A DNA stretch of 64,000 nt, taken from sequence record OR670491, one strand, 5' to 3'. Below are positions 24,559 through 42,613 of the stretch, piece after piece. The stretch is from Escherichia phage vB_EcoM_JNE01. The notes under the pieces were generated by a model. The model was not told where the DNA came from and did not search any database. It saw nothing but the letters and a program-made list of their open reading frames with translations. Position 1 is the first letter of the stretch. Every line of letters starts with the position of its first letter. A program made the position numbers and the translations under genes.

Positions 24559-24640
24559 TTGACTTATTTTGTCAGTACTGGCATAATGTATTCATTGGCA
24601 GATAAGCCGTAGCCCATAGGGTGCGGGAGTGTATCTATAG
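24559..24640 (+). promoter_or_regulatory. promoter (TTGACT/CATAAT) followed by conserved element AGCCCATAGGGTGCGGGAGTGTATCTAT
   Basis: seven copies of this element in the window, always downstream of a promoter. Confidence 0.45.
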
Positions 24641-24812
24641 AAAAATTAGTTTAGTATAGTTACAATTGTGCACCCGGTGGGTTAGCTGTTGTCATGGGGT
24701 ATATTATGCCAGTACTTGATAATTCTGTCAATACTTTTTTTTTACTATTCAGTACTGAAAACTATTTTTAAAAAGTACTTGCAAACTATGTTTAAAGGCG
24801 TATAATGTTTTA

Positions 24813-24895
24813 CATCAGGACGGGGAACGAAATAAGTAACTTCCCGTTAAGTAGCCCAGGAGTAAGGCACACGAAAAACTCCCCTGATAAAATAG
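24813..24895 (+). ncRNA. candidate structured leader / small RNA (about 80 nt)
   Basis: promoter-driven, no ORF, two hairpins; near-identical copy at 35214-35295. Confidence 0.3.
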
Positions 24896-24956
24896 TTTGA
24901 CAAATGTTTTTAAAAGCGTATAATACTTACATCAACTACTGAATGAGGGTTACAAA

Positions 24957-25568
24957 ATGAAAACTATCACTACTACTACTTTCGTTATGGATTTTTCTGA
25001 ATTGAACGCAGAACAACAAACGTCAGCTATCGAACTGGTTCGGGATCGTGAGCGTTCATGTGAGGATAATTTCTTTGCTGAGGGCGTTATCGAGTACTAT
25101 AAAGAAACAGTACTACCAGAATACGGCATAGATGAAGCTGAATTGCAATACAGTGGTTTTTGGTCGCAAGGTGACGGTGCATCAATCAGTACTGACAGCG
25201 TGGACGCAGTGAAGTTTTTACGCAAGATTAAAGCGTTAACGAAATATCGTTCTATCCGTCACTTGTTGAATGAAGATGATTTGGCAATGAGTGTAGAACG
25301 TTCACACTCTCGCTACGCACACGAAAACACGGTAAGCGGGTACATTGAATCGGCTTACACTGATTTAACCGCAAAACAAGAAACGTTAGTTAATGAGCTT
25401 GAGGAACTACTCACTGATACTATTCGTGAATTGTCCCGCAAGTTGTACCGTGATTTAGAGAATGCATATGAGGATCAATTCACTACTGAAAACATTACGG
25501 CACTGATTGAGGGTAACGAATATCAATTCAATGTTATTGATGGCGTAGTGGAATCAATCGAATATTAA
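24957..25568 (+). CDS. hypothetical protein
   Basis: 203-aa acidic ORF with its own promoter (TTGACA...TATAAT) and SD. Confidence 0.65.
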   Translation: MKTITTTTFVMDFSELNAEQQTSAIELVRDRERSCEDNFFAEGVIEYYKETVLPEYGIDEAELQYSGFWSQGDGASISTDSVDAVKFLRKIKALTKYRSIRHLLNEDDLAMSVERSHSRYAHENTVSGYIESAYTDLTAKQETLVNELEELLTDTIRELSRKLYRDLENAYEDQFTTENITALIEGNEYQFNVIDGVVESIEY

Positions 25569-25580
25569 TTTAAAAAGTAC

Positions 25581-25640
25581 TTGCAAACTAAGTTTAAAAG
25601 CGTATAATACTTTATATCGAGGCGGGGAGTGGTTCCCCGC
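25581..25640 (+). promoter_or_regulatory. early-type promoter plus 5' stem-loop GCGGGGA-GTGG-TTCCCCGC
   Basis: TTGCAA 25581-25586, TATAAT 25603-25608. Confidence 0.55.
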
Positions 25641-25658
25641 TCAAACGAGGATTTAAAA

Positions 25659-25898
25659 ATGGCTAGTACTAAAACTTACAACGGACACAAAAACAAAACT
25701 CATTGGAATGTAAGCCTTTGGATTAATAACGGTGAGTCATTGTATCGGCTTGCTCAAAGTTGCATCGCACAAAGTAGAACTAAAGATATTGCTGCGGAAT
25801 GTATGTACCGCAGATTAAAAGCCAACGGTACTACTACAACGCCGGACGGCTTTAAGTATAGCACTACTGCGATCCGTGCTGCAATGGTTGGAATGTAA
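25659..25898 (+). CDS. hypothetical small protein (paralog of 23618..23857)
   Basis: MASTKTYNGHKNKTHWNVSLWINN...PDGFKYSTTAIRAAMVGM. Confidence 0.6.
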   Translation: MASTKTYNGHKNKTHWNVSLWINNGESLYRLAQSCIAQSRTKDIAAECMYRRLKANGTTTTPDGFKYSTTAIRAAMVGM

Positions 25899-25955
25899 TA
25901 TTCAGTACTGAGATAATGGCGGGTAATAGTTCCCGCCTTTACTGAGGGTTATCTA

Positions 25956-26216
25956 ATGAGTAAAGTAATTAGCTATACAGCACTAAGCAAGACATTATCT
26001 ATTAGCCAGTGCACCGATGGTTATTGGCTATTTGATGAAACGCGTGGCATGAATTTAGCGATGCGTGCAAAAACTGCTGAGGCGGCGTATATTCAAGCAC
26101 TGGAATACTACCAGGAACGTTTAAAGGAAGTAGAAGAAGATTATAAAAGCCTCAAAGCGAAAGTAGATCATTTCGTCGGTCAATTCAACGAGGAAGACGA
26201 CGACAAACAATATTGA
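25956..26216 (+). CDS. hypothetical small protein
   Basis: 86-aa ORF preceded by hairpin GGCGGGTAATAGTTCCCGCC. Confidence 0.55.
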   Translation: MSKVISYTALSKTLSISQCTDGYWLFDETRGMNLAMRAKTAEAAYIQALEYYQERLKEVEEDYKSLKAKVDHFVGQFNEEDDDKQY

Positions 26217-26224
26217 AAAAGTAC

Positions 26225-26283
26225 TTGCAATTAGTTTTCAGTACTGTATAATGGTTTACATCAAAGGGAGAAATGGTTCTCCC
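26225..26283 (+). promoter_or_regulatory. early-type promoter plus 5' stem-loop GGGAGAA-ATGG-TTCTCCC
   Basis: TTGCAA 26225-26230, TATAAT 26247-26252. Confidence 0.55.
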
Positions 26284-26302
26284 TGGTAATGAGGAAAATA
26301 AA

Positions 26303-26524
26303 ATGGCTAATATCACTACTCTTTCCCAACTGGAAGCACTGGTGAAATCTATGCGGGAACATGCCGACAAAATCGGCGTACAAGATCCAGCCGTTTGCTT
26401 CTGCGACGAATTGAATGATGATACCCTGGTAATAGCAGAAGTCCAGGACGTTTCTAACTATTCCTCGCGTTACACTGGCGGCGTAGCAAATAAAGGCGAC
26501 TTCTGTTTATACCTTACAAAATAA
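26303..26524 (+). CDS. hypothetical small protein
   Basis: start moved to MANITTLSQ with SD GAGGAAA. Confidence 0.6.
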   Translation: MANITTLSQLEALVKSMREHADKIGVQDPAVCFCDELNDDTLVIAEVQDVSNYSSRYTGGVANKGDFCLYLTK

Positions 26525-26529
26525 CAACG

Positions 26530-26559
26530 CGGGGAGATAATAACTCCCCGTTACTTTTT
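26530..26559 (+). terminator. rho-independent terminator
   Basis: CGGGGAG-loop-CTCCCCG hairpin plus T-run. Confidence 0.6.
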
Positions 26560-26767
26560 CAGTACTGAATCATTTAATAGACGGATCTCGGCACCCGGTG
26601 GGTTAGTGACTGTTTCGTCTTGATGTAGTAATTATGCCAGTACTGGATGCACTTGTCAACAACTATTTTTCAAATACTTTTTATTAAAATACTTGCAATT
26701 AGTTTTTAAACGCGTATAATGTTTTGCATAGGGGGAGCGGTTCCCCTGGTAACTAAGGAATAATAAA

Positions 26768-27004
26768 ATGCTTGAACAAATCAAATCAACGTCTGCGAAT
26801 GTAACGGGAACGGTATCACACTTTACTAGTGATGAATCGCGTGGTGTTCCTTATTGTGCTGTACATGTAAACACTGATGGCAACTACTGGTTTACGGTTT
26901 ACGGATCATATTCATTTGGACGGCCAGGGCATCAAAAAATTCTGGATAAAGTACAACCAACGGGTAAAAATATCACTGCCGAAATGTTTTATAAAAAATC
27001 ATAA
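26768..27004 (+). CDS. hypothetical small protein
   Basis: 78-aa ORF with promoter, hairpin and SD upstream. Confidence 0.6.
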   Translation: MLEQIKSTSANVTGTVSHFTSDESRGVPYCAVHVNTDGNYWFTVYGSYSFGRPGHQKILDKVQPTGKNITAEMFYKKS

Positions 27005-27009
27005 AGTAC

Positions 27010-27068
27010 TTGCAATTAGTTTTTAGTACTGTATAATATTTTACATCGCAAGGGGAAACGGTTTCCCC
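27010..27068 (+). promoter_or_regulatory. early-type promoter plus 5' stem-loop GGGGAAA-CGG-TTTCCCC
   Basis: TTGCAA 27010-27015, TATAAT 27032-27037. Confidence 0.55.
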
Positions 27069-27088
27069 TGGTAACTAAGGATAATCAA

Positions 27089-27388
27089 ATGAAAGTTGCA
27101 ATCATCGCCCTGGCTTTATCTGTATCGTCTTTCGCTGTTAACGCTTCCGTTGATGTACCGCGTGAAAAATTCATTCAGTGCACTGTTGCAATGACTAACG
27201 AGGAAACGGCTGAGATTGTTACCAAATCCCTGGAACTGGCCCCTGCAATGTTTGCTAATGGCCCGTACCATGAAGAAGATGATCAGGGTAGCACGACCAT
27301 CTATTACGATGCAAAAAGTAAACGCGGTTCAGTTACTGTAATGGATACTGAGAAAGTTACATTCACGGGAGTAATTAATTGTTTTTAA
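27089..27388 (+). CDS. small secreted/periplasmic protein (Sec signal peptide)
   Basis: MKVAIIALALSVSSFAVNA/SVD: hydrophobic N-region with AxA cleavage motif. Confidence 0.65.
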   Translation: MKVAIIALALSVSSFAVNASVDVPREKFIQCTVAMTNEETAEIVTKSLELAPAMFANGPYHEEDDQGSTTIYYDAKSKRGSVTVMDTEKVTFTGVINCF

Positions 27389-27404
27389 TGAAGTACTGAA
27401 TCAT

Positions 27405-27434
27405 AAGCCCACTATAAGAAGTGGGCTTTTTTTA
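27405..27434 (+). terminator. rho-independent terminator
   Basis: AAGCCCACT-loop-AGTGGGCTT plus T-run. Confidence 0.65.
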
Positions 27435-27518
27435 TTGTAGTACTGAATACTTTAAAAATAGTTTTGAAATAGTAGTTGACATTACCAGGGAAAGGCGTAG
27501 AATGTATTACATCAGGAC

Positions 27519-27600
27519 GGGGAACACTAAGTAGACCGCCAGTAAGTCGAACGAAAAACTGGACACGACCTGGAAACTTTGATAAACTAACTTACACTTT
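27519..27600 (+). ncRNA. candidate structured 5' leader (diverged copy of the 80-nt element)
   Basis: begins CATCAGGACGGGGAAC like copies at 24813 and 35214. Confidence 0.25.
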
Positions 27601-27618
27601 AATTGAGGAATTAAAAAA

Positions 27619-28098
27619 ATGGCAAATGTAAAATCATTCTTTAAAGCACTGGTATCTTCTGACGTATCTATCGCCGCTGAATTGCTGGCTGACCTGGATA
27701 ATGATACCATGAAAGCAGTACGCAATAATTTTAATATGGCGTACAGTGCAGCAAAAGAACTGCAAGCCAAAAAGGTAGCAGAACTGGAAGCGGCAAAGGC
27801 AGAACGTGAAGCAGAACTGCAAGCAACAATCGAAAGCATCCAGGCGGCGGTAAGTGGATTGGATATCGAGATCGTAACCGATATGGCACATAAAGCCCTA
27901 GCTGCAAAATACGGTGAAGTAAAAGCGGTTAAAGAAAAGAAATGGATTCAGGACCGCGTTAACGTAGTACTTGACAACGGGGAAGAATATCTTATTCCTG
28001 TACGCGGTAACTGCATTGCCGTAGTACTGGACGCGATTAACTCCAGTGGTATGACACGCGAGGAATGGATCGAAGCTCATCGCAAAGTTGAAGCATAA
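27619..28098 (+). CDS. hypothetical protein with central coiled-coil-like segment
   Basis: 159 aa; AKKVAELEAAKAEREAELQATIESIQAAV. Confidence 0.65.
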   Translation: MANVKSFFKALVSSDVSIAAELLADLDNDTMKAVRNNFNMAYSAAKELQAKKVAELEAAKAEREAELQATIESIQAAVSGLDIEIVTDMAHKALAAKYGEVKAVKEKKWIQDRVNVVLDNGEEYLIPVRGNCIAVVLDAINSSGMTREEWIEAHRKVEA

Positions 28099-28119
28099 CA
28101 ATAAAAGTACTGAATCACT

Positions 28120-28147
28120 AGCCCACCTTAAACGGTGGGCTTTTTTG
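28120..28147 (+). terminator. rho-independent terminator
   Basis: AGCCCACC-TTAAAC-GGTGGGCT plus T-run. Confidence 0.65.
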
Positions 28148-28373
28148 TGTTTATCGTTTACCAGGCCACCAGCACCGCCTAGAAACGATTCTAACGCATT
28201 AAACTGATTATCTGATGCATTGCCCTAGCTGGTGGCGTTAAGGCTGTAAGAACGCGATTGAGAGCGTTTAAAGTATTTTGCAAAAAGTAATAAAAAGTAC
28301 TTGCACGATTAAGAGATTAGCGTATAATTAATTACATCAAGGCAAGACACCTTAACTAACTGAGGATATAAAG

Positions 28374-28526
28374 ATGAATACTTATGACCTGGATTGTTTT
28401 ACTTTACAAGTAATGTCAGTATGCAGTAAGAAAGATTGGTCATCAAAGGAATTTAAAGCAGTTATCGCGTGTGCAAAACACGGCAAGACTATCAATGAAA
28501 CGGCATCAATCATTGATAAACTTTAA
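28374..28526 (+). CDS. hypothetical small protein (50 aa, not in ORF track)
   Basis: hand-translated; promoter and SD GAGGA upstream. Confidence 0.45.
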   Translation: MNTYDLDCFTLQVMSVCSKKDWSSKEFKAVIACAKHGKTINETASIIDKL

Positions 28527-28595
28527 AAAATAGTTTGACAATAGTTTTAAGTACTGGCATAATACATACATCAACTACTGAATAGGAATTAAAAA

Positions 28596-28823
28596 ATGGC
28601 TATTATCATTACTCGCGTATCTGGTACTACTGGCAACGAACAAGTAGTTGCAGTCATTACCAACAAGGAAGGTGCGGAATTGCAAAATGCAATGAATACC
28701 TGGGCCGTTAATGAGTTCGGTCAGTGGGCAAGTGTAGCATACATTGAAACCTATCAAGTGCCGTCGATTAGTTTAACTGATTTGGGCGTTGAGCGTATCC
28801 TTTGCCTGGATGAATTAAATTAA
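28596..28823 (+). CDS. hypothetical small protein
   Basis: 75-aa ORF with promoter and SD. Confidence 0.6.
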   Translation: MAIIITRVSGTTGNEQVVAVITNKEGAELQNAMNTWAVNEFGQWASVAYIETYQVPSISLTDLGVERILCLDELN

Positions 28824-28908
28824 AAAAGTACTTGCAAAGTAAATCGAATAAAGTATAATACATTACATCAAGGGGAGAAATGGTTCTCCCCACTACAAGG
28901 AAACTAAA

Positions 28909-29052
28909 ATGAAAACTTGTCAATGTGGTCATAAATCTATTACGGGTTTTAAGCGGGGCGTTGCTCTTTGCCAGTACCATTATAATTTACAAGTATGGGG
29001 TAAAGAATGGGCCGACCAGGTGGAAGCAGCAAAGAAAGCAAAAAGTAAGTAA
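28909..29052 (+). CDS. hypothetical small protein (47 aa, not in ORF track)
   Basis: hand-translated MKTCQCGHKS...; promoter, hairpin and SD upstream. Confidence 0.45.
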   Translation: MKTCQCGHKSITGFKRGVALCQYHYNLQVWGKEWADQVEAAKKAKSK

Positions 29053-29140
29053 AATATTATCACAGTACTATTGACATAGTTTGATAGTACTGGCATAATA
29101 GATTTTATCAAGACAACATATTAATTTAAGGAATACAAAA

Positions 29141-29464
29141 ATGGCTAAAACTATCATTAACACCGTTTCCCTGGCTGCAATCCGTGCAATCAATGTTGAC
29201 GGTAAACGTTGGACTGATACATATGGCAATACTTATCATTCTTGTCATGTAAGCGTTGAACTGGATAACGGTTTGAATGATCTGGCGGTTGAATCATTTA
29301 CTTATGGCTATGAAGATGCATATCAACAAACGGCGTTAGATCTATTAAAGGAATCAGTAGACGGGCTTAATACTGATGAAACCTCCCTTACTCGTTTGTG
29401 CAATGATCTTAATATCCCGTTGCATTGTACTGTACAGAATGTTAAACGCAAAAAAGATCTTTAA
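29141..29464 (+). CDS. hypothetical protein (paralog of 35990..36313)
   Basis: shared RWTD..GNTYHSC.VS and C-terminal KRKKD. Confidence 0.6.
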   Translation: MAKTIINTVSLAAIRAINVDGKRWTDTYGNTYHSCHVSVELDNGLNDLAVESFTYGYEDAYQQTALDLLKESVDGLNTDETSLTRLCNDLNIPLHCTVQNVKRKKDL

Positions 29465-29544
29465 TTAGCTTTACTTTATGCAGATACTTTGATATAGTGT
29501 CTGCATAGGGGAAAGAAATTAAATTAACTTAAGAGGATCGTATA

Positions 29545-29814
29545 ATGAAAAATATCAGTACTTTAATCGATACAGGTACTCATGTTCGTCGGTCTATGGT
29601 TGCAACCAGTACTACAAAACAAGTACCAAGCGGTTATCTTGTATTTGTGCACGATGGTAAACTCCTGGAACGTTCAATCAATTTTGATGTTAAAAACAAT
29701 TGCCGTTTTATTATCTTTAAGCGTGAGCAATATAAAATTGATTTACCAGCAAAGCCCATAAGCGGGGCGTACAACGTGCAATCATTGTTTGAACGTCAAC
29801 CATACACCTATTAA
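29545..29814 (+). CDS. hypothetical small protein
   Basis: 89-aa ORF, SD GAGGA. Confidence 0.55.
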   Translation: MKNISTLIDTGTHVRRSMVATSTTKQVPSGYLVFVHDGKLLERSINFDVKNNCRFIIFKREQYKIDLPAKPISGAYNVQSLFERQPYTY

Positions 29815-29865
29815 TCAAAACATCGTTAGCGGTCGATTTAGGCCGCGTATATTGGGGATTATACC

Positions 29866-30138
29866 ATGAACGTTAATCAAGTACTGAATGAGATCGAAAG
29901 CATCATTAAACCAATGAAACGCATTGATGCTATGTTAACACCGGAAGAATGCCGCCTTTATGAGCGTTACAGCGTCGAACAAGTCCAGGCAATGGCTATG
30001 GCTACCCCAGCCGTTAAACCGCCTGAGAATGCGTTACAGGACGTTACAGGGGATTATATCATCAATCCAGTACTAGGGAAGATGGCTGCAATCACCGAAG
30101 ATCAACAAGATTACTTAAGTCAGTACTTAAAAGGTTAA
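29866..30138 (+). CDS. hypothetical small protein
   Basis: 90-aa ORF. Confidence 0.55.
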   Translation: MNVNQVLNEIESIIKPMKRIDAMLTPEECRLYERYSVEQVQAMAMATPAVKPPENALQDVTGDYIINPVLGKMAAITEDQQDYLSQYLKG

Positions 30139-30143
30139 TTAAT

Positions 30144-30353
30144 ATGCTTACTGTACAGGATAAGATCGACATCTTAAAGGTTAATATGTATGTGATTGAT
30201 GCAGTACCTGGTAAAGTATTTGCATACGATGACAGTACTGTAAGCGATTTCTACTATAGCCAGGACGTGGGGGATCTTTCTGTACAGTCGGTTATTGAAA
30301 ACGTAGTTAATGCAGCGTATGAGCATTTACTTTCAAATAGTACTTGCAATTAG
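30144..30353 (+). CDS. hypothetical small protein
   Basis: 69-aa ORF; 3' end runs into next promoter. Confidence 0.5.
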   Translation: MLTVQDKIDILKVNMYVIDAVPGKVFAYDDSTVSDFYYSQDVGDLSVQSVIENVVNAAYEHLLSNSTCN

Positions 30354-30422
30354 TTTTTAAACGCGTATAATGTTTTACATGAAGGGGAGAAATGATTCTC
30401 CCCACTAATTAAGGAATATGAA

Positions 30423-30569
30423 ATGAAAGCATCAAAAAAGAGTAATACTAAGAAAGCACGTTCAACCTTAGATGGGGTATTCCCTTTACGTTTCGTTGAT
30501 GAAGTGGTGTCCTACCCGCCGGGCCTTACTCCTGAGATGGTAGAAAGTTTGCGTAAATCTAAAAAATAG
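30423..30569 (+). CDS. hypothetical small basic protein (48 aa, not in ORF track)
   Basis: hand-translated; promoter, hairpin and SD upstream. Confidence 0.45.
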   Translation: MKASKKSNTKKARSTLDGVFPLRFVDEVVSYPPGLTPEMVESLRKSKK

Positions 30570-30650
30570 TACTTGCAATTAGTTTTTAGTACTGTATAAT
30601 AGTTTACATGAAGGGGAGAAATGATTCTCCCCAATAACAGGAGAATCAAA

Positions 30651-30803
30651 ATGAAACAATACAACGCTCGGTTTGATGTTACTATCGGTAACGGCAAAGG
30701 TCAATTCTCTTTCAGTACTCGCAAAAGTTATACAGAAAACTTCCTGCGTAATTGTGCACTGACCGCCGCTCAAATTAAACATTACTTTCAGGCTAAAAAA
30801 TGA
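30651..30803 (+). CDS. hypothetical small protein
   Basis: start moved to MKQYNARF downstream of promoter hairpin; SD AGGAGAA. Confidence 0.5.
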   Translation: MKQYNARFDVTIGNGKGQFSFSTRKSYTENFLRNCALTAAQIKHYFQAKK

Positions 30804-30889
30804 AAACATTAGCTTACTATAGTTCGGCCCTGGTCGGTGCATTGATCGCGGCGTTGTTAGTAACCTATCTATTCTTTATGGTGATTTAA
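30800..30889 (+). CDS. candidate 29-aa single-TM peptide
   Basis: ATGA overlap with previous gene; hydrophobic MKTLAYYSSALVGALIAALLVTYLFFMVI. Confidence 0.3.
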   Translation: MKTLAYYSSALVGALIAALLVTYLFFMVI

Positions 30890-31033
30890 ATGAATCCAAC
30901 AGGTTTAAACTATAAAAGTTGTTCGGCGTTTACGAAAGCAAATAAAGCGAATGCACGTAAAGCGAAAGTACAAGAATACATCAAGCAAGGCATGACGCGA
31001 AAGGCGGCGATTCTAAAAGCTAAAAATAAATGA
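30890..31033 (+). CDS. candidate 47-aa basic protein
   Basis: TAA-ATG abutting start; hand-translated. Confidence 0.3.
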   Translation: MNPTGLNYKSCSAFTKANKANARKAKVQEYIKQGMTRKAAILKAKNK

Positions 31034-31113
31034 AAAAAGTGGTTGACTCCGGTCAGCCATTTTGCTATTATATATTCATTGAGAGATAGCTCACTAGCCC
31101 ACAGGGTGCATAA
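31033..31113 (+). promoter_or_regulatory. terminator/promoter hairpin plus conserved element AGCCCACAGGGTGCATAAGTGTATCTAT
   Basis: TTGACT inside inverted repeat, TATTAT -10, then conserved element. Confidence 0.45.
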
Positions 31114-31254
31114 GTGTATCTATTATATGAGTATTGAGTACTGAAAACTATTTTAAAAGTATTTGTAGAAAGTACTTGCAAACTATCTCAATAAGCGTAT
31201 AATGTTTTACATCGAAAGGGGAAACGGTTTCCCCTGATAATAAGGAAACAAATC

Positions 31255-31596
31255 ATGACTATCTCAATTGCTCAATCTAACTTTGAAAACGAAATCATCG
31301 CCCAGGCACTGCGTTTAAATGATGGTCGGGCCGAAATTAATTACGGTTTCAATTCAGGCGGTTGTGAAAAATATCAGTACTTTGTAACGGCTGATGGCGG
31401 TGTCCTGGGTATCAATACAGTTATTGTAAACATCCAAAAAATTAATTTCAATGATCCAGACGATAGCCAGTTTTACATCACTGGCGTAGACGTGAACTAT
31501 GAGGATGACTCACTAACTGATGATCACACTGGTGAGAAGTTAGAGAGTGCATACGGTGAAGATGATTATCAGTCAGTACCGGAAGATTTTGAATAA
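31255..31596 (+). CDS. hypothetical acidic protein
   Basis: 113-aa ORF; second promoter, hairpin and SD upstream. Confidence 0.6.
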   Translation: MTISIAQSNFENEIIAQALRLNDGRAEINYGFNSGGCEKYQYFVTADGGVLGINTVIVNIQKINFNDPDDSQFYITGVDVNYEDDSLTDDHTGEKLESAYGEDDYQSVPEDFE

Positions 31597-31693
31597 TATT
31601 AAAAAAATAGTTTGACAATAGATTATAGTACTGTATAATAGTTTACATCAAGGGGAGAAAAACTTCTCCCCACTAACAGAGAGAGAAAACAAA

Positions 31694-35042: not shown

Positions 35043-35060
35043 AAATAATTGAAAAAGGGA

Positions 35061-35632: not shown

Positions 35633-35718
35633 GTATTGACAAAGTATCTTAGTACTGTATAATAGTTTACATCAAGGGGGGGAATGGTTCCCCTCCTAAC
35701 TAAAAGAGAGAAATAAAA

Positions 35719-35901: not shown

Positions 35902-35989
35902 GTATTGACAAAGTATCTTAGTACTGTATAATAGTTTACATCAAGGGGGGGGGAATGGTTCCCCTCCTAACAAAGAGAGAGAAATAAAA

Positions 35990-36313
35990 ATGGCTATGAT
36001 CCTTACCCAGAAAGTAGAACTGAAAATTGTAACCTCCTTTGACATTAAAGTTAATCGGTGGACTGATAGCCACGGCAATACTTACCACTCCTGCTACGTG
36101 TCCGCATTGATTGGTGATCGCTGGGAAGACCTGGGACACGAAACCTTTACATACGGTTACGGCACACAAGGCGAGTACACGGGTTTAGAAATCATTAAGG
36201 AAACTGTAATAGGTTTCAACCCGAAAGAGAAAGTACTACACAGAATTGAGAAAGAGATCAACAAAGAAATTACAGTTCGCTACTACGATGTAAAACGTAA
36301 GAAAGACATGTAA
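35990..36313 (+). CDS. hypothetical protein (paralog of 29141..29464)
   Basis: shared RWTD.HGNTYHSCYVS and C-terminal KRKKDM. Confidence 0.6.
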   Translation: MAMILTQKVELKIVTSFDIKVNRWTDSHGNTYHSCYVSALIGDRWEDLGHETFTYGYGTQGEYTGLEIIKETVIGFNPKEKVLHRIEKEINKEITVRYYDVKRKKDM

Positions 36314-36325
36314 TAGAATCCATTT

Positions 36326-36364
36326 AAAGTACTATTTGACATTGCCCAGATAGTACTTTATAAT
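36326..36364 (+). promoter_or_regulatory. dyad AAAGTACTAT-N-ATAGTACTTT enclosing TTGACA, abutting TATAAT (operator-like)
   Basis: TTGACA 36337-36342, TATAAT 36359-36364; dyad arms on both sides of -35. Confidence 0.45.
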
Positions 36365-36412
36365 AGACTCTAACTTGTAGTACTAATTAACTTAACTAAT
36401 AGGATGTACACC

Positions 36413-36808
36413 ATGATTACTAAATTCTTCGCTACCCGTGAACAAGCTCGCATCGTTGCCCGTGAGGAAGGTGAAACATTTAAAGACATGGGTAAAGATT
36501 CTCCTACTGGTAAACGCTGGGCGGTACAGTTCAAAGAGATCTCTGATATTGTGAATTCACCTGAGCCTGTACTTACAGCAGCAGAACTAAAGCAAGCTCA
36601 AGAACTGGCTGAAGTACTGAACGCTCAAGATGACTTCTTGAAAGGTTCTGATATTGAAGTTACAGTTAACGCAAATGCATGGACTCACGCGGATCACCTG
36701 GCAAACCTTAAGCGTCCAAGTGAACTGATTCGTAACCAGAAAGAGATCCGTCATGACCGTAAAGGAAACCGTGTTACCGTATACAGTAAACGCCGCCAGG
36801 TTATCTAA
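36413..36808 (+). CDS. hypothetical protein (paralog of 23944..24210 with insertion)
   Basis: FATREQARIVAREEGETFKDMG...HDRKGNRVTVYSKRR. Confidence 0.6.
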   Translation: MITKFFATREQARIVAREEGETFKDMGKDSPTGKRWAVQFKEISDIVNSPEPVLTAAELKQAQELAEVLNAQDDFLKGSDIEVTVNANAWTHADHLANLKRPSELIRNQKEIRHDRKGNRVTVYSKRRQVI

Positions 36809-36831
36809 TACCTTGCAGTACTAACCAACAC

Positions 36832-36859
36832 GGCGGGAAGACAGTTCCCGCCTTTTTTA
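36832..36859 (+). terminator. rho-independent terminator
   Basis: GGCGGGAA-GACAG-TTCCCGCC plus TTTTTT. Confidence 0.65.
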
Positions 36860-36872
36860 TAGGACAAACAAA

Positions 36873-37127
36873 ATGATTAAGGTTCAACTATATAAAGATA
36901 ACATCTTACGGGTACACTATAAAGCACCTCAGAGAATCATCACAAAGGCCGTACAGCTTGCTAATGAGTTTATTAATGGTAACCTATTACCTAGGAAGTT
37001 AAGCAACGGGAAACTGCGTGTAATCGACGTGGACACTAACAACAGGATAGTAATCGAGAACACAGGAAAGATAAACCTTTATGAGCATCAACAATACAAT
37101 AAGAAAATAAAACTAATATCACGTTGA
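36873..37127 (+). CDS. hypothetical small protein
   Basis: 84-aa ORF. Confidence 0.55.
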   Translation: MIKVQLYKDNILRVHYKAPQRIITKAVQLANEFINGNLLPRKLSNGKLRVIDVDTNNRIVIENTGKINLYEHQQYNKKIKLISR

Positions 37128-37180
37128 CAGTACTCAATTGTTTTAGTACTATGTACACATACCAACACGGGAGAAACAAA

Positions 37181-37399
37181 ATGAAATTATCTAAAATCGA
37201 AAAGAAAACTATTGATGAAGCAGTTAAGCACGGTTATACCTTTCGTAATGATTCACATTTTACCAATTTTCAACAAGGGTATCGTACTATTAAAAAACTA
37301 ATTGACAAAGGTTTATTAGTTGAAGTCAATAACGGTAACGGTATCGAGTATCAACCAACACAGGACGCATTTTATTTTAAGAAATATAATATTATCTAA
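37181..37399 (+). CDS. hypothetical small protein
   Basis: start moved to MKLSKIEKK; promoter TTGACA...TACTAT and SD GGGAGAAA. Confidence 0.55.
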   Translation: MKLSKIEKKTIDEAVKHGYTFRNDSHFTNFQQGYRTIKKLIDKGLLVEVNNGNGIEYQPTQDAFYFKKYNII

Positions 37400-37457
37400 T
37401 TGACAGTACTCAAATGTTTTAGTACTATATGTACATACCAACACGGGGGGAAACAAA

Positions 37458-37700
37458 ATGATTACTTTAGAAAAACGTATCAAAGAAACTACATCGCTGG
37501 TGGAACTGTTAACAGTACTCAAATGTAAAACAGCACCATTCAGCACGCCGGACTTTATTAATATGGTTGATGTTAATGGTCGCTATCGTATCACGGTCGA
37601 ACAAGGAGCGGCGAAAGTATTCAGTACTAAAAACACGAAGGAAGTGATCCACGCCGTTAATGTTAAAAAAGTAGTTGCCATTGATAGTAAAGTACTGTAA
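37458..37700 (+). CDS. hypothetical small protein
   Basis: 80-aa ORF; promoter nearly identical to that of 37181. Confidence 0.55.
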   Translation: MITLEKRIKETTSLVELLTVLKCKTAPFSTPDFINMVDVNGRYRITVEQGAAKVFSTKNTKEVIHAVNVKKVVAIDSKVL

Positions 37701-37731
37701 TATAGTTTCATTAACTCAAGGAGATCATGCA

Positions 37732-38316
37732 ATGCGTAATTATACAAAATTCATCCGTACACTGTCAGAAATGGAAACCAACAAAGAGATCCTTTCAGCT
37801 TGTCGGTTAGCTGACCTGGAGATCATCGGTGCTGGTTCTTCCCGTATAGTTTTCGCTTTAAATGATCGGTTAGTGATTAAGGTCGCGAATTGTGATGCGG
37901 GTGTAGAACAAAATGAAACTGAATGTAAGGTATGGAATTTTTTAGACTATGACCGCCCTCAGTTGAAACAGTACTTTGCAAAGGTGCATATGCATTTATG
38001 CGATCCTGATAATATGTTTATCGTTATGGATCGGTTGAGTACTGCAAGCAAAGGCAGTGTGAAGCACGTAAACGCGTGCAATGAATTAAAGTACAATATT
38101 AAACGTAATGCAATCGAACGCCAGCACCGCTTTGCTGATGCACTACAACACGTTGATGATACATTATCAACACTAACGATAAGAGATATCAGAAAACAGA
38201 ATATCGGCCAGGATCGTAATGGACTTATTAAAGTACTTGATTACGGTTTAACCAGCAATATCTGGAATCAGTACTATAAAAAGCGTGATGTGGCAGCAAG
38301 TAAGGTAACACGATAA
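37732..38316 (+). CDS. protein-kinase-like protein (candidate phage Ser/Thr kinase)
   Basis: start moved to MRNYTKF; Gly-loop IGAGSSRIVF, VIKV lysine, catalytic-loop-like IRDIRKQNIG, DFG-like LDYGLT. Confidence 0.55.
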   Translation: MRNYTKFIRTLSEMETNKEILSACRLADLEIIGAGSSRIVFALNDRLVIKVANCDAGVEQNETECKVWNFLDYDRPQLKQYFAKVHMHLCDPDNMFIVMDRLSTASKGSVKHVNACNELKYNIKRNAIERQHRFADALQHVDDTLSTLTIRDIRKQNIGQDRNGLIKVLDYGLTSNIWNQYYKKRDVAASKVTR

Positions 38317-38335
38317 AAAAGATTAAAAAAAGGGA

Positions 38336-38416
38336 TTGACTCCGGTCAGTCCCTTTGCTATTATATATCCATTGAGAGATAACTCACTGACCCATAGGGT
38401 GCGGAAGTGTATCTAT
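38336..38416 (+). promoter_or_regulatory. terminator/promoter hairpin plus conserved element GACCCATAGGGTGCGGAAGTGTATCTAT
   Basis: copy of the module at 35061 and 41086. Confidence 0.45.
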
Positions 38417-38538
38417 TATATAAGTATTCAGTACTGAAAACTATTTTTAAAAAAGTACTTGCATTGTACTTAGAATCAAGTATAATGTTTTATATCGAGA
38501 GGGGGAAATGGTTCTCCCTGGCAATAAGGAATAAAATC

Positions 38539-38760
38539 ATGACTACAATGACTTGCATTTACGCTTCCAATCGTCTGAATGATGCGGCCTTTAATGTTGA
38601 TTCAGAATATCAATGTTATCGGGATGAAAATAAAAAAGTTTTTGTAGTTGATAATAATGGTTTCCATATTGAATTACAATCCGGCTTCACTGGTGTTGAT
38701 GGTAAATCAGTATGGGGCGTACAGGATGATAAAGGCACATATCATTTTAAACGTAATTAA
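38539..38760 (+). CDS. hypothetical small protein
   Basis: start moved to MTTMTCIYAS downstream of promoter hairpin. Confidence 0.55.
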   Translation: MTTMTCIYASNRLNDAAFNVDSEYQCYRDENKKVFVVDNNGFHIELQSGFTGVDGKSVWGVQDDKGTYHFKRN

Positions 38761-38843
38761 GTATTGACAAAGTATATCAGTACTGTATAATAGTTTACAT
38801 CAAGGGGAGAATAGTTCTCCCCGATACTAAAAGGAATAAAATC

Positions 38844-39248
38844 ATGACTACTACTAATCTTGCTCGGAATATCGCCAACGATAAAAATCATGCTGCAATG
38901 GTTGTTGGTTACATTGAAGCTATGCAATTCAGTACTGTACACAATGAGAACGGCGATTACCTGGAAGATTATGAATTATCAGAGCAAGCCCATCAAGCGG
39001 CAGTGATTGCATGTTCTCGCTTCATTGAGAAACACGGTAATGATCTGGAAGTAGTTCGCGGTATGTTTATTGATTACGGTTATGAGCAAGCTGGTCATGA
39101 TCTGTTCCTTACCCGCGAAGGTCACGGAACTGGTTTTTGGGATCGTGGTTTAGGTCACTATGGCGATGTATTCACGAAGTACTGCGAAGAAATCAACGTT
39201 TGCGATCCCTATGTAGGCGATGATAATCTAATCTATATGGGCGAATAA
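38844..39248 (+). CDS. hypothetical protein
   Basis: 134-aa ORF with promoter, hairpin and SD. Confidence 0.65.
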   Translation: MTTTNLARNIANDKNHAAMVVGYIEAMQFSTVHNENGDYLEDYELSEQAHQAAVIACSRFIEKHGNDLEVVRGMFIDYGYEQAGHDLFLTREGHGTGFWDRGLGHYGDVFTKYCEEINVCDPYVGDDNLIYMGE

Positions 39249-39335
39249 AAGTATTTGACAAAGTATATCAGTACTGTATAATAGTTTACATCAAGGGGAG
39301 AATAGTTCTCCCCGATACTAAAAGGAAACAAAATT

Positions 39336-39608
39336 ATGTCCAGCTACTCCGCTACTATGATCATTAAAGATATGAACGGTAATCCTACTTCTGCTGGTGG
39401 ATCATTTGGAAACATTAATTTAGATGGTCGGTTATCCATGCAATCAGCAATCGATGCAGCGAAAGAAGTTTTTAAGAATGAATGTACTGTTAGTAAGCTG
39501 GATTATATGGGATTTGCTATCGAAAAAACTAATCGTTTTGTGGACTACAAAAAACCACTGATGATTGATACTAACCTGAAAGCAAACGAAGTGGAGTACT
39601 TATTATGA
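39336..39608 (+). CDS. hypothetical small protein
   Basis: 90-aa ORF; promoter identical to that of 38844. Confidence 0.6.
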   Translation: MSSYSATMIIKDMNGNPTSAGGSFGNINLDGRLSMQSAIDAAKEVFKNECTVSKLDYMGFAIEKTNRFVDYKKPLMIDTNLKANEVEYLL

Positions 39609-39796
39609 CAGTTGAAGAAGTTAAAAAAGTACTGGCAGTACTACGCTATCATAATCATTGTAAGGTGAAGAATGATCCTGATTATCTTGATTCATCCCTG
39701 GAAGAGGATACACTACAAGCAATAAGCCATATGCAAACATTAGCAAAGCGTATGACCGAAAAGAATAGACCGGACTATATCGGAAATAAAATTTAA
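39605..39796 (+). CDS. hypothetical small protein
   Basis: ATGA overlap with previous gene. Confidence 0.55.
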   Translation: MTVEEVKKVLAVLRYHNHCKVKNDPDYLDSSLEEDTLQAISHMQTLAKRMTEKNRPDYIGNKI

Positions 39797-39882
39797 AAAG
39801 TACTTGCATTGTAGTTAGATTAACGTATAATGTTTTACATAGAGCGGGGGAATAGTTCTCCCGCCAGTCCAGGAGATACACC

Positions 39883-40146
39883 ATGAACACTATCGAAATC
39901 ACTATCAATGCACACGTATACGACAACGTAATCATGCAAACTACTATGACCGCTAATGATACCAGTACTTTGCGGAATACTGTTATTAGTGCTGTATGTG
40001 CCGCTATCGGTGATGTCGCCCTGGAAAATGCAAAACACGTAAACGATGGTTTCACTATGTGCAAACGTGATAACGCAAAACATATCATCGTGGAAGGTTA
40101 CGGCGGTGTAGAATTTAATGTTTATATGAAAAAAGTACTTGCATAA
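39883..40146 (+). CDS. hypothetical small protein
   Basis: 87-aa ORF with promoter, hairpin and SD. Confidence 0.6.
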   Translation: MNTIEITINAHVYDNVIMQTTMTANDTSTLRNTVISAVCAAIGDVALENAKHVNDGFTMCKRDNAKHIIVEGYGGVEFNVYMKKVLA

Positions 40147-40213
40147 TAACTAAAACAAAGTATAATGTTTTGCATAGGGGGAGATATCCTCCCCCACTAA
40201 AAGGAGTAATAAA

Positions 40214-40438
40214 ATGGCTAACTTTGATGAACTGATGCGGGAAGTAGCTAACCTGGCAGAAGAGAAGAAATCATTCGATTCTATCTATAACACCGCTCAC
40301 CGTGATTCAGTACTGGCATGTAACCAGGATCAAAAAGATGAACTAATCGCCACCTATCATGAAGCATGGAAGTACTACCGACAATGGGAGAAAGAAGAAA
40401 GTGAGTCTACCATTGACGGCCTCAATAATCTAATCTAA
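40214..40438 (+). CDS. hypothetical small acidic protein
   Basis: 74-aa ORF with promoter, hairpin and SD. Confidence 0.6.
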   Translation: MANFDELMREVANLAEEKKSFDSIYNTAHRDSVLACNQDQKDELIATYHEAWKYYRQWEKEESESTIDGLNNLI

Positions 40439-40514
40439 AAGTTTTATTTCAGTACTATTGACATAGCTTGATAGTACTGATGTAATAACTTTACTAACTA
40501 CAAGGGGAAACATA

Positions 40515-40772
40515 ATGGATCAGTTCACACAATATCGGGTAAATCATCAAGCTATGGCCTACGTAGAAGACCATAAAACGTTACCAGTACTGCAACCAGT
40601 TAAAGGCCATATCTATCGTGCAATGTCGTGGTGTACGGCCCAGGATGGCTATAAAACCGTAGCCGTTGGTATGTATTGCGGTAATGGTGAATGGTTTGAT
40701 CCAAATAATCCGGTAGCCATTGACAGTACTGAAAAAATGAAATGGGCCGACTACATCGAAGATATTTCATAA
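40515..40772 (+). CDS. hypothetical small protein
   Basis: 85-aa ORF with promoter. Confidence 0.6.
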   Translation: MDQFTQYRVNHQAMAYVEDHKTLPVLQPVKGHIYRAMSWCTAQDGYKTVAVGMYCGNGEWFDPNNPVAIDSTEKMKWADYIEDIS

Positions 40773-40861
40773 AAACTATTTGACAGTACTAACCAGTAAT
40801 GTATAATGTTTTACATAGAGCGGGGAATAGTTCTCCCGCCAATAGTTTGGAGTAAAACATT

Positions 40862-41062
40862 ATGTCTATCGCTATCGCCCTGGTTGAAGTACTGAAAGAA
40901 GCTAAAGCCAACCAGATCGACGTAAAGATCCAGGAACTACAAAACGGCTTAATCGGCTGTACTTGTACCGCTGGTGGAGCGGCAGACTATCGAGAACACG
41001 AATCACTCGAATCACTGGTTCGGTATCTTACCATGATCGTTGATGATTGGAGAATCATCTAA
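40862..41062 (+). CDS. hypothetical small protein
   Basis: 66-aa ORF with promoter and hairpin; contains in-frame Chi octamer. Confidence 0.55.
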   Translation: MSIAIALVEVLKEAKANQIDVKIQELQNGLIGCTCTAGGAADYREHESLESLVRYLTMIVDDWRII

Positions 41063-41085
41063 CAAAAAAAGAATAAAAAAAGGGA

Positions 41086-41159
41086 TTGACTCCGGTCAGT
41101 CCCTTTGCTATTATATACGCATAGACAAAAACTAGCCCACAGGGTGCATAGGTGTATCC
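41086..41159 (+). promoter_or_regulatory. terminator/promoter hairpin plus conserved element AGCCCACAGGGTGCATAGGTGTATCC
   Basis: copy of the module at 35061 and 38336. Confidence 0.45.
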
Positions 41160-41308
41160 AAAATATATAGTTAATAACGGTGAGTAACTATCTGCTGGTG
41201 GAACTAAAACTATTAATAAAAAAGTATTGACAAAGTATATCAGTACTGCAATAATGTATCTCGTAGGGCGGCAATGGTGCGACGGCCCACAAAGTTAGGA
41301 GATTCAAA

Positions 41309-41641
41309 ATGACTACTTCAATCGCTATCGTTAAAGCTTTCATCCGTACTAATGTTTCCTCTGTATTCATCGACGGCCTCGACCGTAACGTAGAATACTC
41401 AATCATTATCGCACAAACGGCAAACGGTTCTCGGTACATCCTGAATGATAGTGAAGCAAATCACTACTACTTCACTAAAGCCACTGGCTTTAAACGCATC
41501 GATGCTGATGTAGTATACGCTAAGATGAATAAGCTGGTAGACAAGATTAACGCTAAAGGTACTATAGATTTACAGTACTGGACCGAAACCGATCCAGAAT
41601 ATGGATCTCACCGCTACCTGAATCCAGGTATCAAAATGTAA
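41309..41641 (+). CDS. hypothetical protein
   Basis: 110-aa ORF with promoter and SD. Confidence 0.6.
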   Translation: MTTSIAIVKAFIRTNVSSVFIDGLDRNVEYSIIIAQTANGSRYILNDSEANHYYFTKATGFKRIDADVVYAKMNKLVDKINAKGTIDLQYWTETDPEYGSHRYLNPGIKM

Positions 41642-41730
41642 AAAGTACTTGCATAGTACTTAGATTCATGTATAATGTTTTACATAGAGAGGGGGAAATG
41701 GTTCTCCCTCCTAAATTAAGGAGTATTGTC

Positions 41731-42132
41731 ATGACTTTTTCTATCAATTCTTATGCTGACGTTTTAGTACTGGCTCGGACTTTTGGTAAAGATGCACTGG
41801 AGTACGCTGTAAGTAATGGCACTATCCAACCGGAACAGTGCCGCATCATTGGAAACTGCAAACGTTGGGCGGTTTCCAATACTATTGCACTGGAAAACTT
41901 CCACGATGGCAACAATGAATATTCTGTTGATGTAGTATTCGAAGCCGTTGATCTCGGCGGTATCTATAATACTAACCTGAATGATGTGCGTATCGTTCGC
42001 ACTGGGTTCGGTGCTTATGATGTATCTATTCGTGAAGCTATGAACACCGGATACATTAGCAAGGACTTACTTGCTCACATCATGCAGCTGTGTACGGAAC
42101 GTAACGAAGCACGCACTATCTTAGGACTGTAA
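41731..42132 (+). CDS. hypothetical protein
   Basis: start moved to MTFSINSYADV downstream of promoter hairpin; SD AAGGAG. Confidence 0.6.
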   Translation: MTFSINSYADVLVLARTFGKDALEYAVSNGTIQPEQCRIIGNCKRWAVSNTIALENFHDGNNEYSVDVVFEAVDLGGIYNTNLNDVRIVRTGFGAYDVSIREAMNTGYISKDLLAHIMQLCTERNEARTILGL

Positions 42133-42200
42133 GCGTTACACATCACCAAACATCATAGGCCGCCTTGTAGCGGCCTTAACTATATCAGGAGTACATACAC

Positions 42201-42410
42201 ATGATCTATACAGTATACAGCGTTCTAGGCACTATTGCAGGCGTACATGATAACGTCGATAGTGCTATGCGTACAGTACTGCAACAGGTTCCACTAAAGC
42301 CTAAGACCATTAAGCAGATGACAGCACGACTAACCAGGGCGACGGCTGGCGTGGAAGTATGGCAGGACTATGGGGATACACAGATAATCGTAAGCGTAAC
42401 GAAGGATTAA
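42201..42410 (+). CDS. hypothetical small protein
   Basis: 69-aa ORF, SD AGGAG. Confidence 0.55.
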   Translation: MIYTVYSVLGTIAGVHDNVDSAMRTVLQQVPLKPKTIKQMTARLTRATAGVEVWQDYGDTQIIVSVTKD

Positions 42411-42585
42411 TGCGTAAAAGGATTTAGTACTGATGCATTTTAAATTTTAGTCATTTTTTAAAAACTACGCAAAAAAACTAAACCAATACCTTAGCGTAAT
42501 AGTTTAGGGATTGGACTATGTTTTTATGCGTGGGGGGGCTAGTATGGGGTAACCTTAGCTCGATCGTGAAGTAGCCCATAGGGTA

Positions 42586-42613
42586 TTGACTTTTTATATG
42601 GAACGTGTAAAAT
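42586..42613 (+). promoter_or_regulatory. sigma70-like promoter (TTGACT-16-TAAAAT) for the LGT-family array
   Basis: preceded by truncated conserved element AGCCCATAGGGTAT. Confidence 0.45.

Follow-up and report, generated by a model that had tools for sequence, protein, structure and literature searches.

The promoter-early stem-loop (PeSL) elements of T4-type phages are composite promoter/terminator cassettes in which the stem-loop may overlap the -35 box; their promoter and terminator activities have been shown by reporters, and a spread by recombination has been proposed (Arbiol et al. 2010, PMC2839356; Comeau et al. 2014, PMC4122927). Here we describe a repeated element located behind promoters of this type in a 64,000-nt stretch of the genome of Escherichia phage vB_EcoM_JNE01 (record OR670491), which is referred to as the window and numbered from its first letter. 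An earlier note on the window had pointed out a conserved sequence of about 28 nt, in seven copies, and considered it a candidate protein-binding site or short regulatory RNA. The element is very probably the conserved core of a transcribed, structured RNA of ~50 nt, judging from the comparison of its copies. Of the two proposals in the note, the RNA is favoured by a covarying 5′ hairpin, by a CCC/GGG hairpin that tolerates changes in loop length and by free-standing, terminator-bearing copies, whereas a protein-binding DNA site is disfavoured, as the distance to the promoter varies (21 versus 25-28 nt) and base pairing is constrained rather than sequence. The family consists of 161 distinct copies gathered from related phages and metagenomes, and 96 copies were analysed for promoters, 98 were aligned by the model, 92 were classified by context, 90 were examined for promoter hairpins and 139 for terminators.

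The hairpin around the -35 box is, to judge by its sequence, an already known kind of element, a PeSL composite terminator/promoter. As in PeSL, a near-consensus sigma-70 promoter is preceded by AT-rich sequence, and promoters with TTGACT-17-TATTAT are found after A-runs at 31043, 35061, 38336 and 41086. The stem-loop likewise lies in or next to the promoter, with a subclass overlapping the -35 box: TTGAC is inside an 8-14-bp hairpin in 30 of 90 module promoters, across several phage genera. These hairpins have A-run and T-run flanks and a UUCG, UCCG or GAAA loop, and their outer stem covaries (GGGA/UCCC, GUGG/CCAU, GGGG/CCCC, AGAGG/CCUCU, GUAC/GUAC). In the window the inverted repeat reported in the note occurs exactly as GGGATTGAC-TCCG-GTCAGTCCC at 35057, 38332 and 41082 and as the variant GTGGTTGAC-TCCG-GTCAGCCA at 31036-31063, each with the -35 box inside, and the simpler hairpin that had been placed near 761 was located at 755-790 with no element behind it. 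Both kinds of unit are intergenic, are repeated many times and border small orphan early genes in plastic regions. The terminator action of the module-promoter hairpins is predicted here from a scan for hairpins and T-runs, whereas in PeSL it has been shown by reporters. PeSLs as described have no conserved transcribed RNA domain and stop at the Shine-Dalgarno sequence of the gene that follows, whereas here a structured module of ~50 nt comes next, often without a gene behind it or as part of a convergent pair, and only within the terminal repeat of RaK2-like jumbo phages. An end at a ribosome-binding site or start codon is seen for the ordinary promoters of the repeat and for the hairpin at 755-790, which lies outside the repeat and is predicted to head an ordinary mRNA, but not for the module promoters, 35 of 92 of which face a partner and others a terminator.

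A structured module repeated in the terminal repeat

The window shares 98% identity with Escherichia phage fEgEco12, has 121Q, PBECO4, phAPEC6 and other ~350-kb Asteriusvirus genomes as close kin and is, by these sequence similarities, the early region of a RaK2/121Q-like jumbo coliphage. The boundaries of its direct terminal repeat (DTR) were derived by homology from the annotation of the vB_Ec-M-J record (DTR 1-21525), position 1 of which aligns to window 21340, while its DTR end falls at about window 42555. By analogy with other terminal-repeat phages, the DNA of this region is likely the first to enter the cell. The DTR is crowded with small genes, nearly each of which has its own sigma-70 promoter, close to consensus, and a 5′ leader hairpin rich in GC. 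This ordinary early cassette is present in >30 copies at window 23049-41710, before almost every small DTR gene, and consists of an A-rich region, (AGTAC)TTGCA/TTGACA-16/17-TATAAT, the start ACATC, a leader hairpin of the GGGGAAnnnnTTCCCC type, a Shine-Dalgarno sequence and ATG.

With at most three mismatches allowed, the 28-nt consensus has 7 sites in the window versus 0.00 expected from 100 shuffles, which excludes chance. The sites are at 24611, 31096, 32775, 35109, 38389 and 41134 on the plus strand and at 24656-24683 on the minus strand; the positions given in the note hold for the sites it listed, apart from an offset in the copy at 31096, which had been placed at 31086. There are more copies than had been noted. 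A covariance model scored unfiltered across all 64 kb finds ten full copies and one diverged partial copy, on both strands, adding 22425-22476 and 26575-26626 and a variant at 22641-22692, all on the minus strand, and a weak partial match at 22604-22623 on the plus strand. The GCACCCGGTGGG segments at 22440, 24680 and 26590, which had been interpreted as partly complementary sequences that could pair with the element, turn out to be full minus-strand copies, each with its own promoter. The model has no hits outside 22.4-41.2 kb in the window, where ~21 kb on either side of the DTR is empty. Neighbouring copies are 0.07-6.5 kb apart, 6 of the 11 head no gene, and some are near-identical across about 130 nt. 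The features are as follows.

21340-42555: DTR, ~21 kb, the early-gene region, with all full module copies inside; assigned by homology to vB_Ec-M-J
22425-22476, minus strand: module copy, long form (44.9 bits, E 4e-8 with the covariance model), promoter at ~22481-22510
22543-22631, plus strand: diverged copy, promoter TTGCTA-18-TACTAT, partial model match at 22604-22623 (15.2 bits, E 0.16)
22641-22724, minus strand: variant copy with the core CCCAGGGGGTGG (22.4 bits at 22641-22692), promoter TTGACT-16-TATAAT at 22724-22697
24559-24640, plus strand: promoter 24559-24587, its -35 box within a 13-bp hairpin, and module 24590-24640; left half of a convergent pair
24654-24731, minus strand: module 24654-24694 and promoter 24731-24703; right half of the convergent pair
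26517-26659, minus strand: predicted free-standing small-RNA gene of ~105 nt, promoter 26659-26631, module 26626-26575, terminator 26550 to ~26517
31036-31125, plus strand: composite hairpin 31036-31063, promoter 31043-31071 and module 31074-31125
31176-31203, plus strand: second (tandem) promoter, of the type preceding most DTR genes, then a GGGGAAACGGTTTCCCC leader hairpin and a gene at 31255
32720-32804, plus strand: promoter 32720-32748, without a hairpin, and module 32753-32804
35054-35138, plus strand: composite hairpin 35054-35081, promoter 35061-35089 and short-form module 35092-35138; Chi octamer at 35142
38329-38418, plus strand: composite hairpin 38329-38356, promoter 38336-38364 and module 38367-38418, the top-scoring copy of the window
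41079-41163, plus strand: composite hairpin 41079-41106, promoter 41086-41114 and short-form module 41123-41163; second promoter at 41227-41255
42571-42588, plus strand: truncated copy AGCCCATAGGGTATTGAC joined to the -35 box of the next promoter, ~15 nt past the DTR end as placed here

The tandem promoters described in the note are confirmed by the second promoters listed and by another at about 38459-38486, after the 38329-38418 unit. The truncated copy that it had reported near 42571 is also present, but short: in the sequence AGCCCATAGGGTattgac the first 14 bases only match, followed by the -35 box, and vB_Ec-M-J has no such copy at the corresponding place. The predicted transcription of the 22425 copy runs toward the left DTR end, into an array of 8-bp repeats. 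The diverged plus-strand copy at 22543-22631 is the convergent partner of the copy at 22668; it has a GUAC/GUGC hairpin with a UGAGAAA loop, the core is replaced by CCUGCUAGGGUGC, and a 3′ hairpin AGGGUGC-GGGA-GUGUAUCCU (22605-22624) followed by U7 is terminator-like. The predicted terminator of 26517-26659 is CGGGGAG-TTATTAT-CTCCCCG with a U-rich tail; this unit has no open reading frame (ORF), and the surrounding plus-strand genes are antisense to it.

The module is linked to a promoter throughout: a sigma-70 promoter on the same strand was found for all 96 distinct copies first collected. The distance from the -10 box to the core CCCAYAGGGTGC is bimodal, 21 nt in the short form and 25-28 nt in the long form, and the core would begin at about +14 to +21 of the predicted transcript. 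Between the start site and the core lies P1, a hairpin of 3-5 bp with at least 37 different stem sequences (e.g. UGGC/GCCG, AGCA/UGCU, GACG/CGUC, GGAG/CUCC, ACCAC/GUGGU) and a conserved, purine-rich loop (GCGAAA, GAGAAA, AGAUAA or AGAACAA), which occupies the same place as the leader hairpin of the ordinary cassette; the short form retains a 3-bp P1, UAG-ACAAAAA-CUA. RNA folding with covariation, which the note had named as a check, gave compensatory changes in P1 and sparse ones in the following hairpin. In the model alignment of 98 distinct sequences, each of the four P1 pairs has changes on both sides, with 169 compensatory cells, and 92.6% of the pairings are kept versus 30-70% when the 3′ partner is slid. 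A YUA linker connects P1 to the mini-hairpin Pa, R-CCC-AYA-GGG-U, and RNAalifold run on the alignment independently gives P1 and Pa. The stem of Pa is invariant and its covariation correspondingly sparse, with C3-G7 replaced by U-A in 3 sequences, while variants keep CCC/GGG around the 4-nt loops UCAA, UAUA, UAGA, UUUA and AUUA; such changes of loop length with the stem kept are in keeping with a hairpin in RNA but not with a rigid site in DNA. Pa is followed by the tail GC-RKARRU-NYRUCY-AU; at each of its positions U18, Y20, R21, U22, C23 and Y24, at least 84% of copies have the conserved base or a base of the same class.

Several further features were considered and dropped. A 3′ hairpin, P3, between GGGUG and YRYCY is pairable in 94-100% of copies but has no register specificity, since its 5′ side is invariant G/U and any pyrimidine column would pair with it; the diverged copy alone makes a convincing case for it, at 22605-22624, with U7 behind the hairpin. 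An attenuator or riboswitch in which Pa alternates with P3 and a U-tract was rejected, the sequences after the module being A-rich as often as U-rich and the downstream genes unrelated. The tail can pair with the P1 loop or with the 5′ leader (AGAUA/UAUCU, AGACG/CGUCU) in some window copies and not in most copies of other phage types, and a conserved small ORF within the element was discarded, as stops occur at differing places and there is no common start codon.

The element is restricted to the terminal repeat in the window and to RaK2-like jumbo phages of Enterobacterales. An exact-pattern scan of IMG/VR gave matches almost only in jumbo-phage contigs of 345-378 kb (121Q, GAP32, RaK2, CBB and uncultured relatives) and in one 109-kb fragment, with a match on a 35.8-kb contig (L020) left out as chance, having no promoter; the metagenome scan contributed 35 additional stretches with 83 further model hits. 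No element was found in 100,044 bacterial and archaeal genomes scanned, and BLAST against 5,426 E. coli genomes gave no similar sequence, both searches being blind to a complementary target of just 12 nt. In the Pseudomonas relative PA5oct, the first 45 kb of the terminal repeat lack the element. Rfam 15 at gathering thresholds has no match anywhere in the window, permissive Rfam scans of three module regions gave noise only, far under threshold, and the 12-mer was not found in a phage context in the literature searched. The element is likewise not described in the genome papers on CBB (PMC5259590) and PA5oct (PMC7318152), which list promoters and non-coding RNAs. The RNA motif family is real and strongly constrained, and it appears to be undescribed. 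The counter-scenario offered in the note, that the copies are unconstrained remnants of a single duplicated spacer, is excluded, because the 12-mer is kept in 161 distinct copies of RaK2-, GAP32-, CBB- and 121Q-type while the flanks and P1 stems differ.

Genomic contexts and mode of action

The copies occur in three contexts: in convergent pairs, before a gene or second promoter, and free-standing. Among 92 copies the first feature downstream is a convergent partner in 35 (about 38%), an ORF in 33, a second promoter in 9 and none of these in 15. Convergent pairs have core-to-core gaps of 45, 56 or 63 nt, with 45 nt in the window pair at 24613/24681. The copies with none of these features are free-standing genes with an intrinsic terminator ~45 nt after the module, usually in common with a convergent protein gene. 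For 13 of 16 unpaired copies, a strictly defined terminator has the end of its stem 70-76 nt after the start of the core, which predicts an RNA of about 100 nt. The genes downstream of modules are unrelated to one another.

Two observations from relatives concern these contexts. Pairs with 56- or 63-nt gaps in related phages have a Fur-box-like inverted repeat at their centre (L028 3082-3168, L030 8050-8136, L011 1248-1334, L015 996-1082, L010 6060-6139 and L030 2792-2871), which on one L030 strand is the perfect palindrome AAATGCGAATGATTATCATTCGCATTT (cf. the Fur box GATAATGATAATCATTATC) and is not found in the window pair with its 45-nt gap; the repeat could be a sign of protein control, iron-dependent or otherwise, between the paired promoters. 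In three metagenomic relatives (L010 12617, L025 2074 and L029 6046) a module of the short form precedes, by 48-50 nt, the start of a conserved protein of ~175 aa, the N-terminus of which is basic and Gly/Arg/Ser-rich (MPGQFRSK...GSRGSRNQGTG); this protein has no obvious counterpart among the eight window ORFs translated for comparison.

A possible course of events can be outlined from this arrangement. Unmodified host sigma-70 RNA polymerase would start at the strong promoter, the -35 box of which is in about one third of copies nested in the predicted terminator hairpin of the preceding gene, and the first ~50 nt of the transcript would form P1, Pa and the tail. At free-standing copies an intrinsic terminator ~45 nt further on would give an RNA of ~100 nt, in convergent pairs two overlapping RNAs would be made toward each other at a fixed promoter spacing, and at the remaining copies the RNA would continue into the second promoter and gene. 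The RNA would be produced from many copies right after DNA entry, with Pa and the tail serving as a handle for one conserved putative partner, either a protein that is titrated or recruited or a complementary RNA. Since more than half of the copies head no gene and the invariant part does not change with context, the RNA itself is most likely the product. Taken as a whole, the explanation by a promoter-made structured RNA that acts in trans through Pa and the tail on one partner has in our view an even chance of being correct, and a trans-acting small RNA as the main mode of action, the likeliest of the readings considered, is one that we would stop just short of calling probable. More tentative, and on balance doubtful, is the specific proposal of immediate-early multicopy small RNAs, many in convergent pairs, in which the CCC-loop-GGG hairpin captures one conserved host or phage factor as a takeover or anti-defence device rather than as a leader.

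A number of points weigh against this interpretation. Transcription is deduced from promoter consensus. Single-sequence folding energies are no better than those of shuffles (z -0.7 to +0.1), which makes the case for structure a comparative one, and the alignment used for counting pairs was fitted by the model, with a seed alignment picked for P1 pairing. Leader hairpins of at least 4 bp are present in 60% of copies compared with 24% of shuffles and 68% of unrelated downstream segments, an uninformative control, since the downstream segments hold partner copies and AGTACT palindromes. The mean energy of P3 is about 0 kcal/mol versus -3.6 for the CCC/GGG pairing of Pa. No more than 18 of 139 copies pass the strict terminator test, compared with 8% of random positions, and ~45% of copies precede a gene or second promoter, which leaves room for a role in cis.

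Such a role would make the module a cis-acting leader, a 5′ tag for the stability, processing or translation of its own transcript, with a phage or host RNA-binding protein acting on Pa and the tail, for example in immediate-early shut-off. The 42 of 92 copies with an ORF or second promoter first downstream, the four plus-strand window copies that head tandem-promoter units, the position of P1 where ordinary early leaders have their 5′ hairpin and the three metagenomic phages with the module close before the ~175-aa protein all agree with it, but 35 of 92 copies have nothing but a partner copy opposite them, others are closed by a terminator without an ORF, and the unrelated downstream genes usually have their own promoter, so that we consider a leader rather unlikely. 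Another alternative is processive antitermination, in which the nascent module would modify the polymerase, either alone as in HK022 put or with a small phage protein as in lambda N/nut, and would allow it to read through DTR terminators. Two adjacent promoter-proximal hairpins are indeed known from putL and nutL, the variable P1 stem with its GNRA-like purine loop is reminiscent of boxB, and the module promoters lie directly after terminators in a region with several of them. Free-standing copies, however, meet an intrinsic terminator ~45 nt later, apparently the end of the RNA, convergent pairs would be senseless for read-through, and read-through would be unneeded where almost every gene has its own promoter. 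In addition, no boxA (a CGCUCUUUA-like 9-mer with at most one mismatch) adjoins any window module copy, and the ops/JUMPStart element of RfaH, GGCGGTAGNNTG, has a single 1-mismatch match, at 15837 on the minus strand and far from every copy. The probability of antitermination accordingly seems small to us.

The pairs could also be seen as sites of bidirectional priming, if the act of transcription or an RNA:DNA hybrid served a DNA transaction of the DTR, such as R-loop priming of an origin, as at T4 oriF/oriG, or opening for recombination or packaging. The confinement of the copies to the DTR and the fixed spacing of convergent pairs would fit, as would the direction of the two leftmost copies, which point into a non-coding 8-bp tandem array at the cumulative GC-skew minimum, and these phages are distant T4 relatives (PMC5259590). 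We nonetheless think it very unlikely: ten to twenty origins per repeat are implausible, a primer 3′ end has no need of conserved 5′ RNA hairpins, terminator-bearing copies are predicted to give short discrete RNAs, and the GC-skew minimum is equally explained by the switch in gene orientation there. A double-stranded DNA operator for a transcription factor, working as a roadblock just 3′ of the promoter, would account for an invariant 12-mer at a roughly fixed place behind promoters, and the Fur-box-like palindrome between paired copies in related phages suggests that DNA-binding proteins may act nearby; yet the P1 stem is free to vary provided it pairs, the 3- or 4-nt loop of Pa shifts the spacing of the half-sites, and the promoter distance is bimodal, which together render an operator highly improbable. 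The same covariation bears on the least credible of the explanations, mobile cassette copies of PeSL type that have no function of their own and are kept alike by recombination or gene conversion. The promoters are of the PeSL class, for which spread by recombination has been proposed (PMC2839356, PMC4122927), and near-identity over about 130 nt is seen among some window copies; homogenisation, though, would not give 37 different paired stems with compensatory changes, nor an invariant 12-mer in 161 distinct copies of several genera next to differing stems and flanks, and the sequence covariation largely refutes this explanation.

Other repeats and early-region features

Several other repeated sequences were observed in the window. 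The E. coli Chi octamer GCTGGTGG occurs 13 times versus 0.44 expected in the whole window, with 11 sites on the plus strand and 2 on the minus strand, at 21830-41194 and all within the DTR; some sites are within module-promoter spacers or just 3′ of the module (35142, 41194). Chi is likewise enriched in module-bearing loci of 121Q, GAP32, RaK2, CBB and metagenomic relatives, with 198 sites in 495 kb (loci L003-L010, L023, L030 and L066), and there are none in the PA5oct repeat. The enrichment suggests that the genome ends are protected from RecBCD. The palindrome AGTACT is found 301 times in the whole window versus about 22 expected, 4-fold above any other palindromic hexamer; it forms part of the promoter context (cAGTACTGnnATAAT, AAAAAGTACTTGCA), is found outside promoters too and is lacking in one 4-kb stretch at window 48-52 kb.

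At the 1.7-kb non-coding left end of the DTR, the array at the cumulative GC-skew minimum consists of ~19 head-to-tail 8-bp units (CTAAACGG, CTGGATGG, CTAGACGG) at window 22119-22270, toward which two minus-strand module promoters are directed, and could be an iteron-like or end-processing element. Around the left DTR boundary as placed here (21270-21330 and 21400-21440) there are direct repeats GAATGATT / AATGATT(A/C)AG and AATCA(A/C). A perfect TTGACA-16-TATAAT promoter at window 21708-21760 has the predicted transcript start ACAUAGGGUGAGGGAACGG; this transcript has AUAGGGUG in common with the module core, lacks the CCC arm and was missed by the covariance model. Outside the DTR, the minus strand of window 6848-17036 carries an array of about nine paralogous units of ~1250 bp with conserved gene starts and a common upstream sequence of the ATAAATA type (coding strand TAAATATAGTATAATG), the units being separated by a CCAGTACT..AGTACTGG hairpin, and small tandem paralogous gene families are located at 18967-20854 and 45572-46005, with units of ~200 nt that have GAGTACTACAG in common near their starts and one 207-nt pair of 72% identity.

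Comparison with known systems

To our knowledge, few phage small RNAs are known and almost none from jumbo phages. The present family is large and easily defined, with at least 161 distinct copies, at least 10 of them in this terminal repeat, an invariant 12-mer and clear covariation, and its position in DNA that is likely the first to enter the cell opens the first minutes of jumbo-phage infection to RNA mapping and pull-downs. Titration or recruitment of a host factor by the RNA, if it occurs, would represent a new route of host takeover or counter-defence, whereas a function in modifying the polymerase or in priming replication would explain the way in which early transcription or origin firing is organised in these 350-kb genomes. 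The covariance model can be used for annotating such RNAs in deposited genomes, where the region is blank or has spurious small "hypothetical proteins", and the compact strong terminator/promoter units may be of use as synthetic-biology parts.

The module has the full set of defining features of none of the known systems with which it was compared. Three candidates were rejected outright. An RNA anti-CRISPR, or solitary repeat, is contradicted by the absence of an Rfam CRISPR direct-repeat match and of anything similar in the 5,426 E. coli and 100,044 species genomes, a ToxI-like type III antitoxin by the absence of a tandem array, the copies being 0.07-6.5 kb apart and on both strands, and tmRNA mimicry, suspected from GCGAAAC..CCCA..GGUGCAU, by a module-model score of at most 3 bits on the E. 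coli ssrA locus. Lambda nut, composed of boxA and boxB, and HK022 put are antitermination RNAs, which the module resembles in its promoter-proximal place in early transcripts and in its small hairpins, one of them with a variable stem and a purine-rich loop; it differs from them in having no adjoining boxA, in the termination soon after free-standing copies and in occurring on both strands and in convergent pairs. ColE1 RNA I/RNA II and R1 CopA/CopT are antisense pairs made from convergent promoters, and the paired modules similarly have two facing promoters about 140-170 bp apart that would give overlapping complementary RNAs with 5′ hairpins. In contrast to these plasmid systems, the two RNAs of a pair have one and the same 5′ module instead of complementary loops, no replicon or target gene is attached, and several pairs occur per genome.

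The setting of the module is that of the T5 pre-early region and the SPO1 terminal redundancy, in which early regions for host takeover lie in long terminal repeats. Many small genes and strong host-type promoters, transcribed first, are found in these and in the repeats of PA5oct and CBB (PMC7318152, PMC5259590) as well as here, and highly expressed non-coding RNAs have been described from the PA5oct repeat (PMC7318152). Neither of those two papers reports such a repeated RNA domain, however, and the PA5oct repeat lacks the module in its first 45 kb.

The features of a small-RNA gene, namely a promoter, no ORF and a terminator, are found in a subset of copies only, such as 26517-26659 on the minus strand and those with terminators 70-76 nt after the core, and not in paired or leader copies. 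Multicopy small RNAs of the enterobacterial type, for example Qrr1-5 and OmrA/B, have a conserved 5′ domain and an intrinsic terminator. The module differs from these in being phage-encoded in at least 10 copies per repeat, many of which have no terminator and continue into genes or a partner, and in having a conserved segment that is largely self-paired (CCC/GGG). Like Qrr1-5 and OmrA/B, it forms a set of paralogous copies with their own promoter, no ORF, a predicted length of about 100 nt and the strongest conservation at the 5′ end, and its free-standing copies end in a terminator hairpin with a U-tail.

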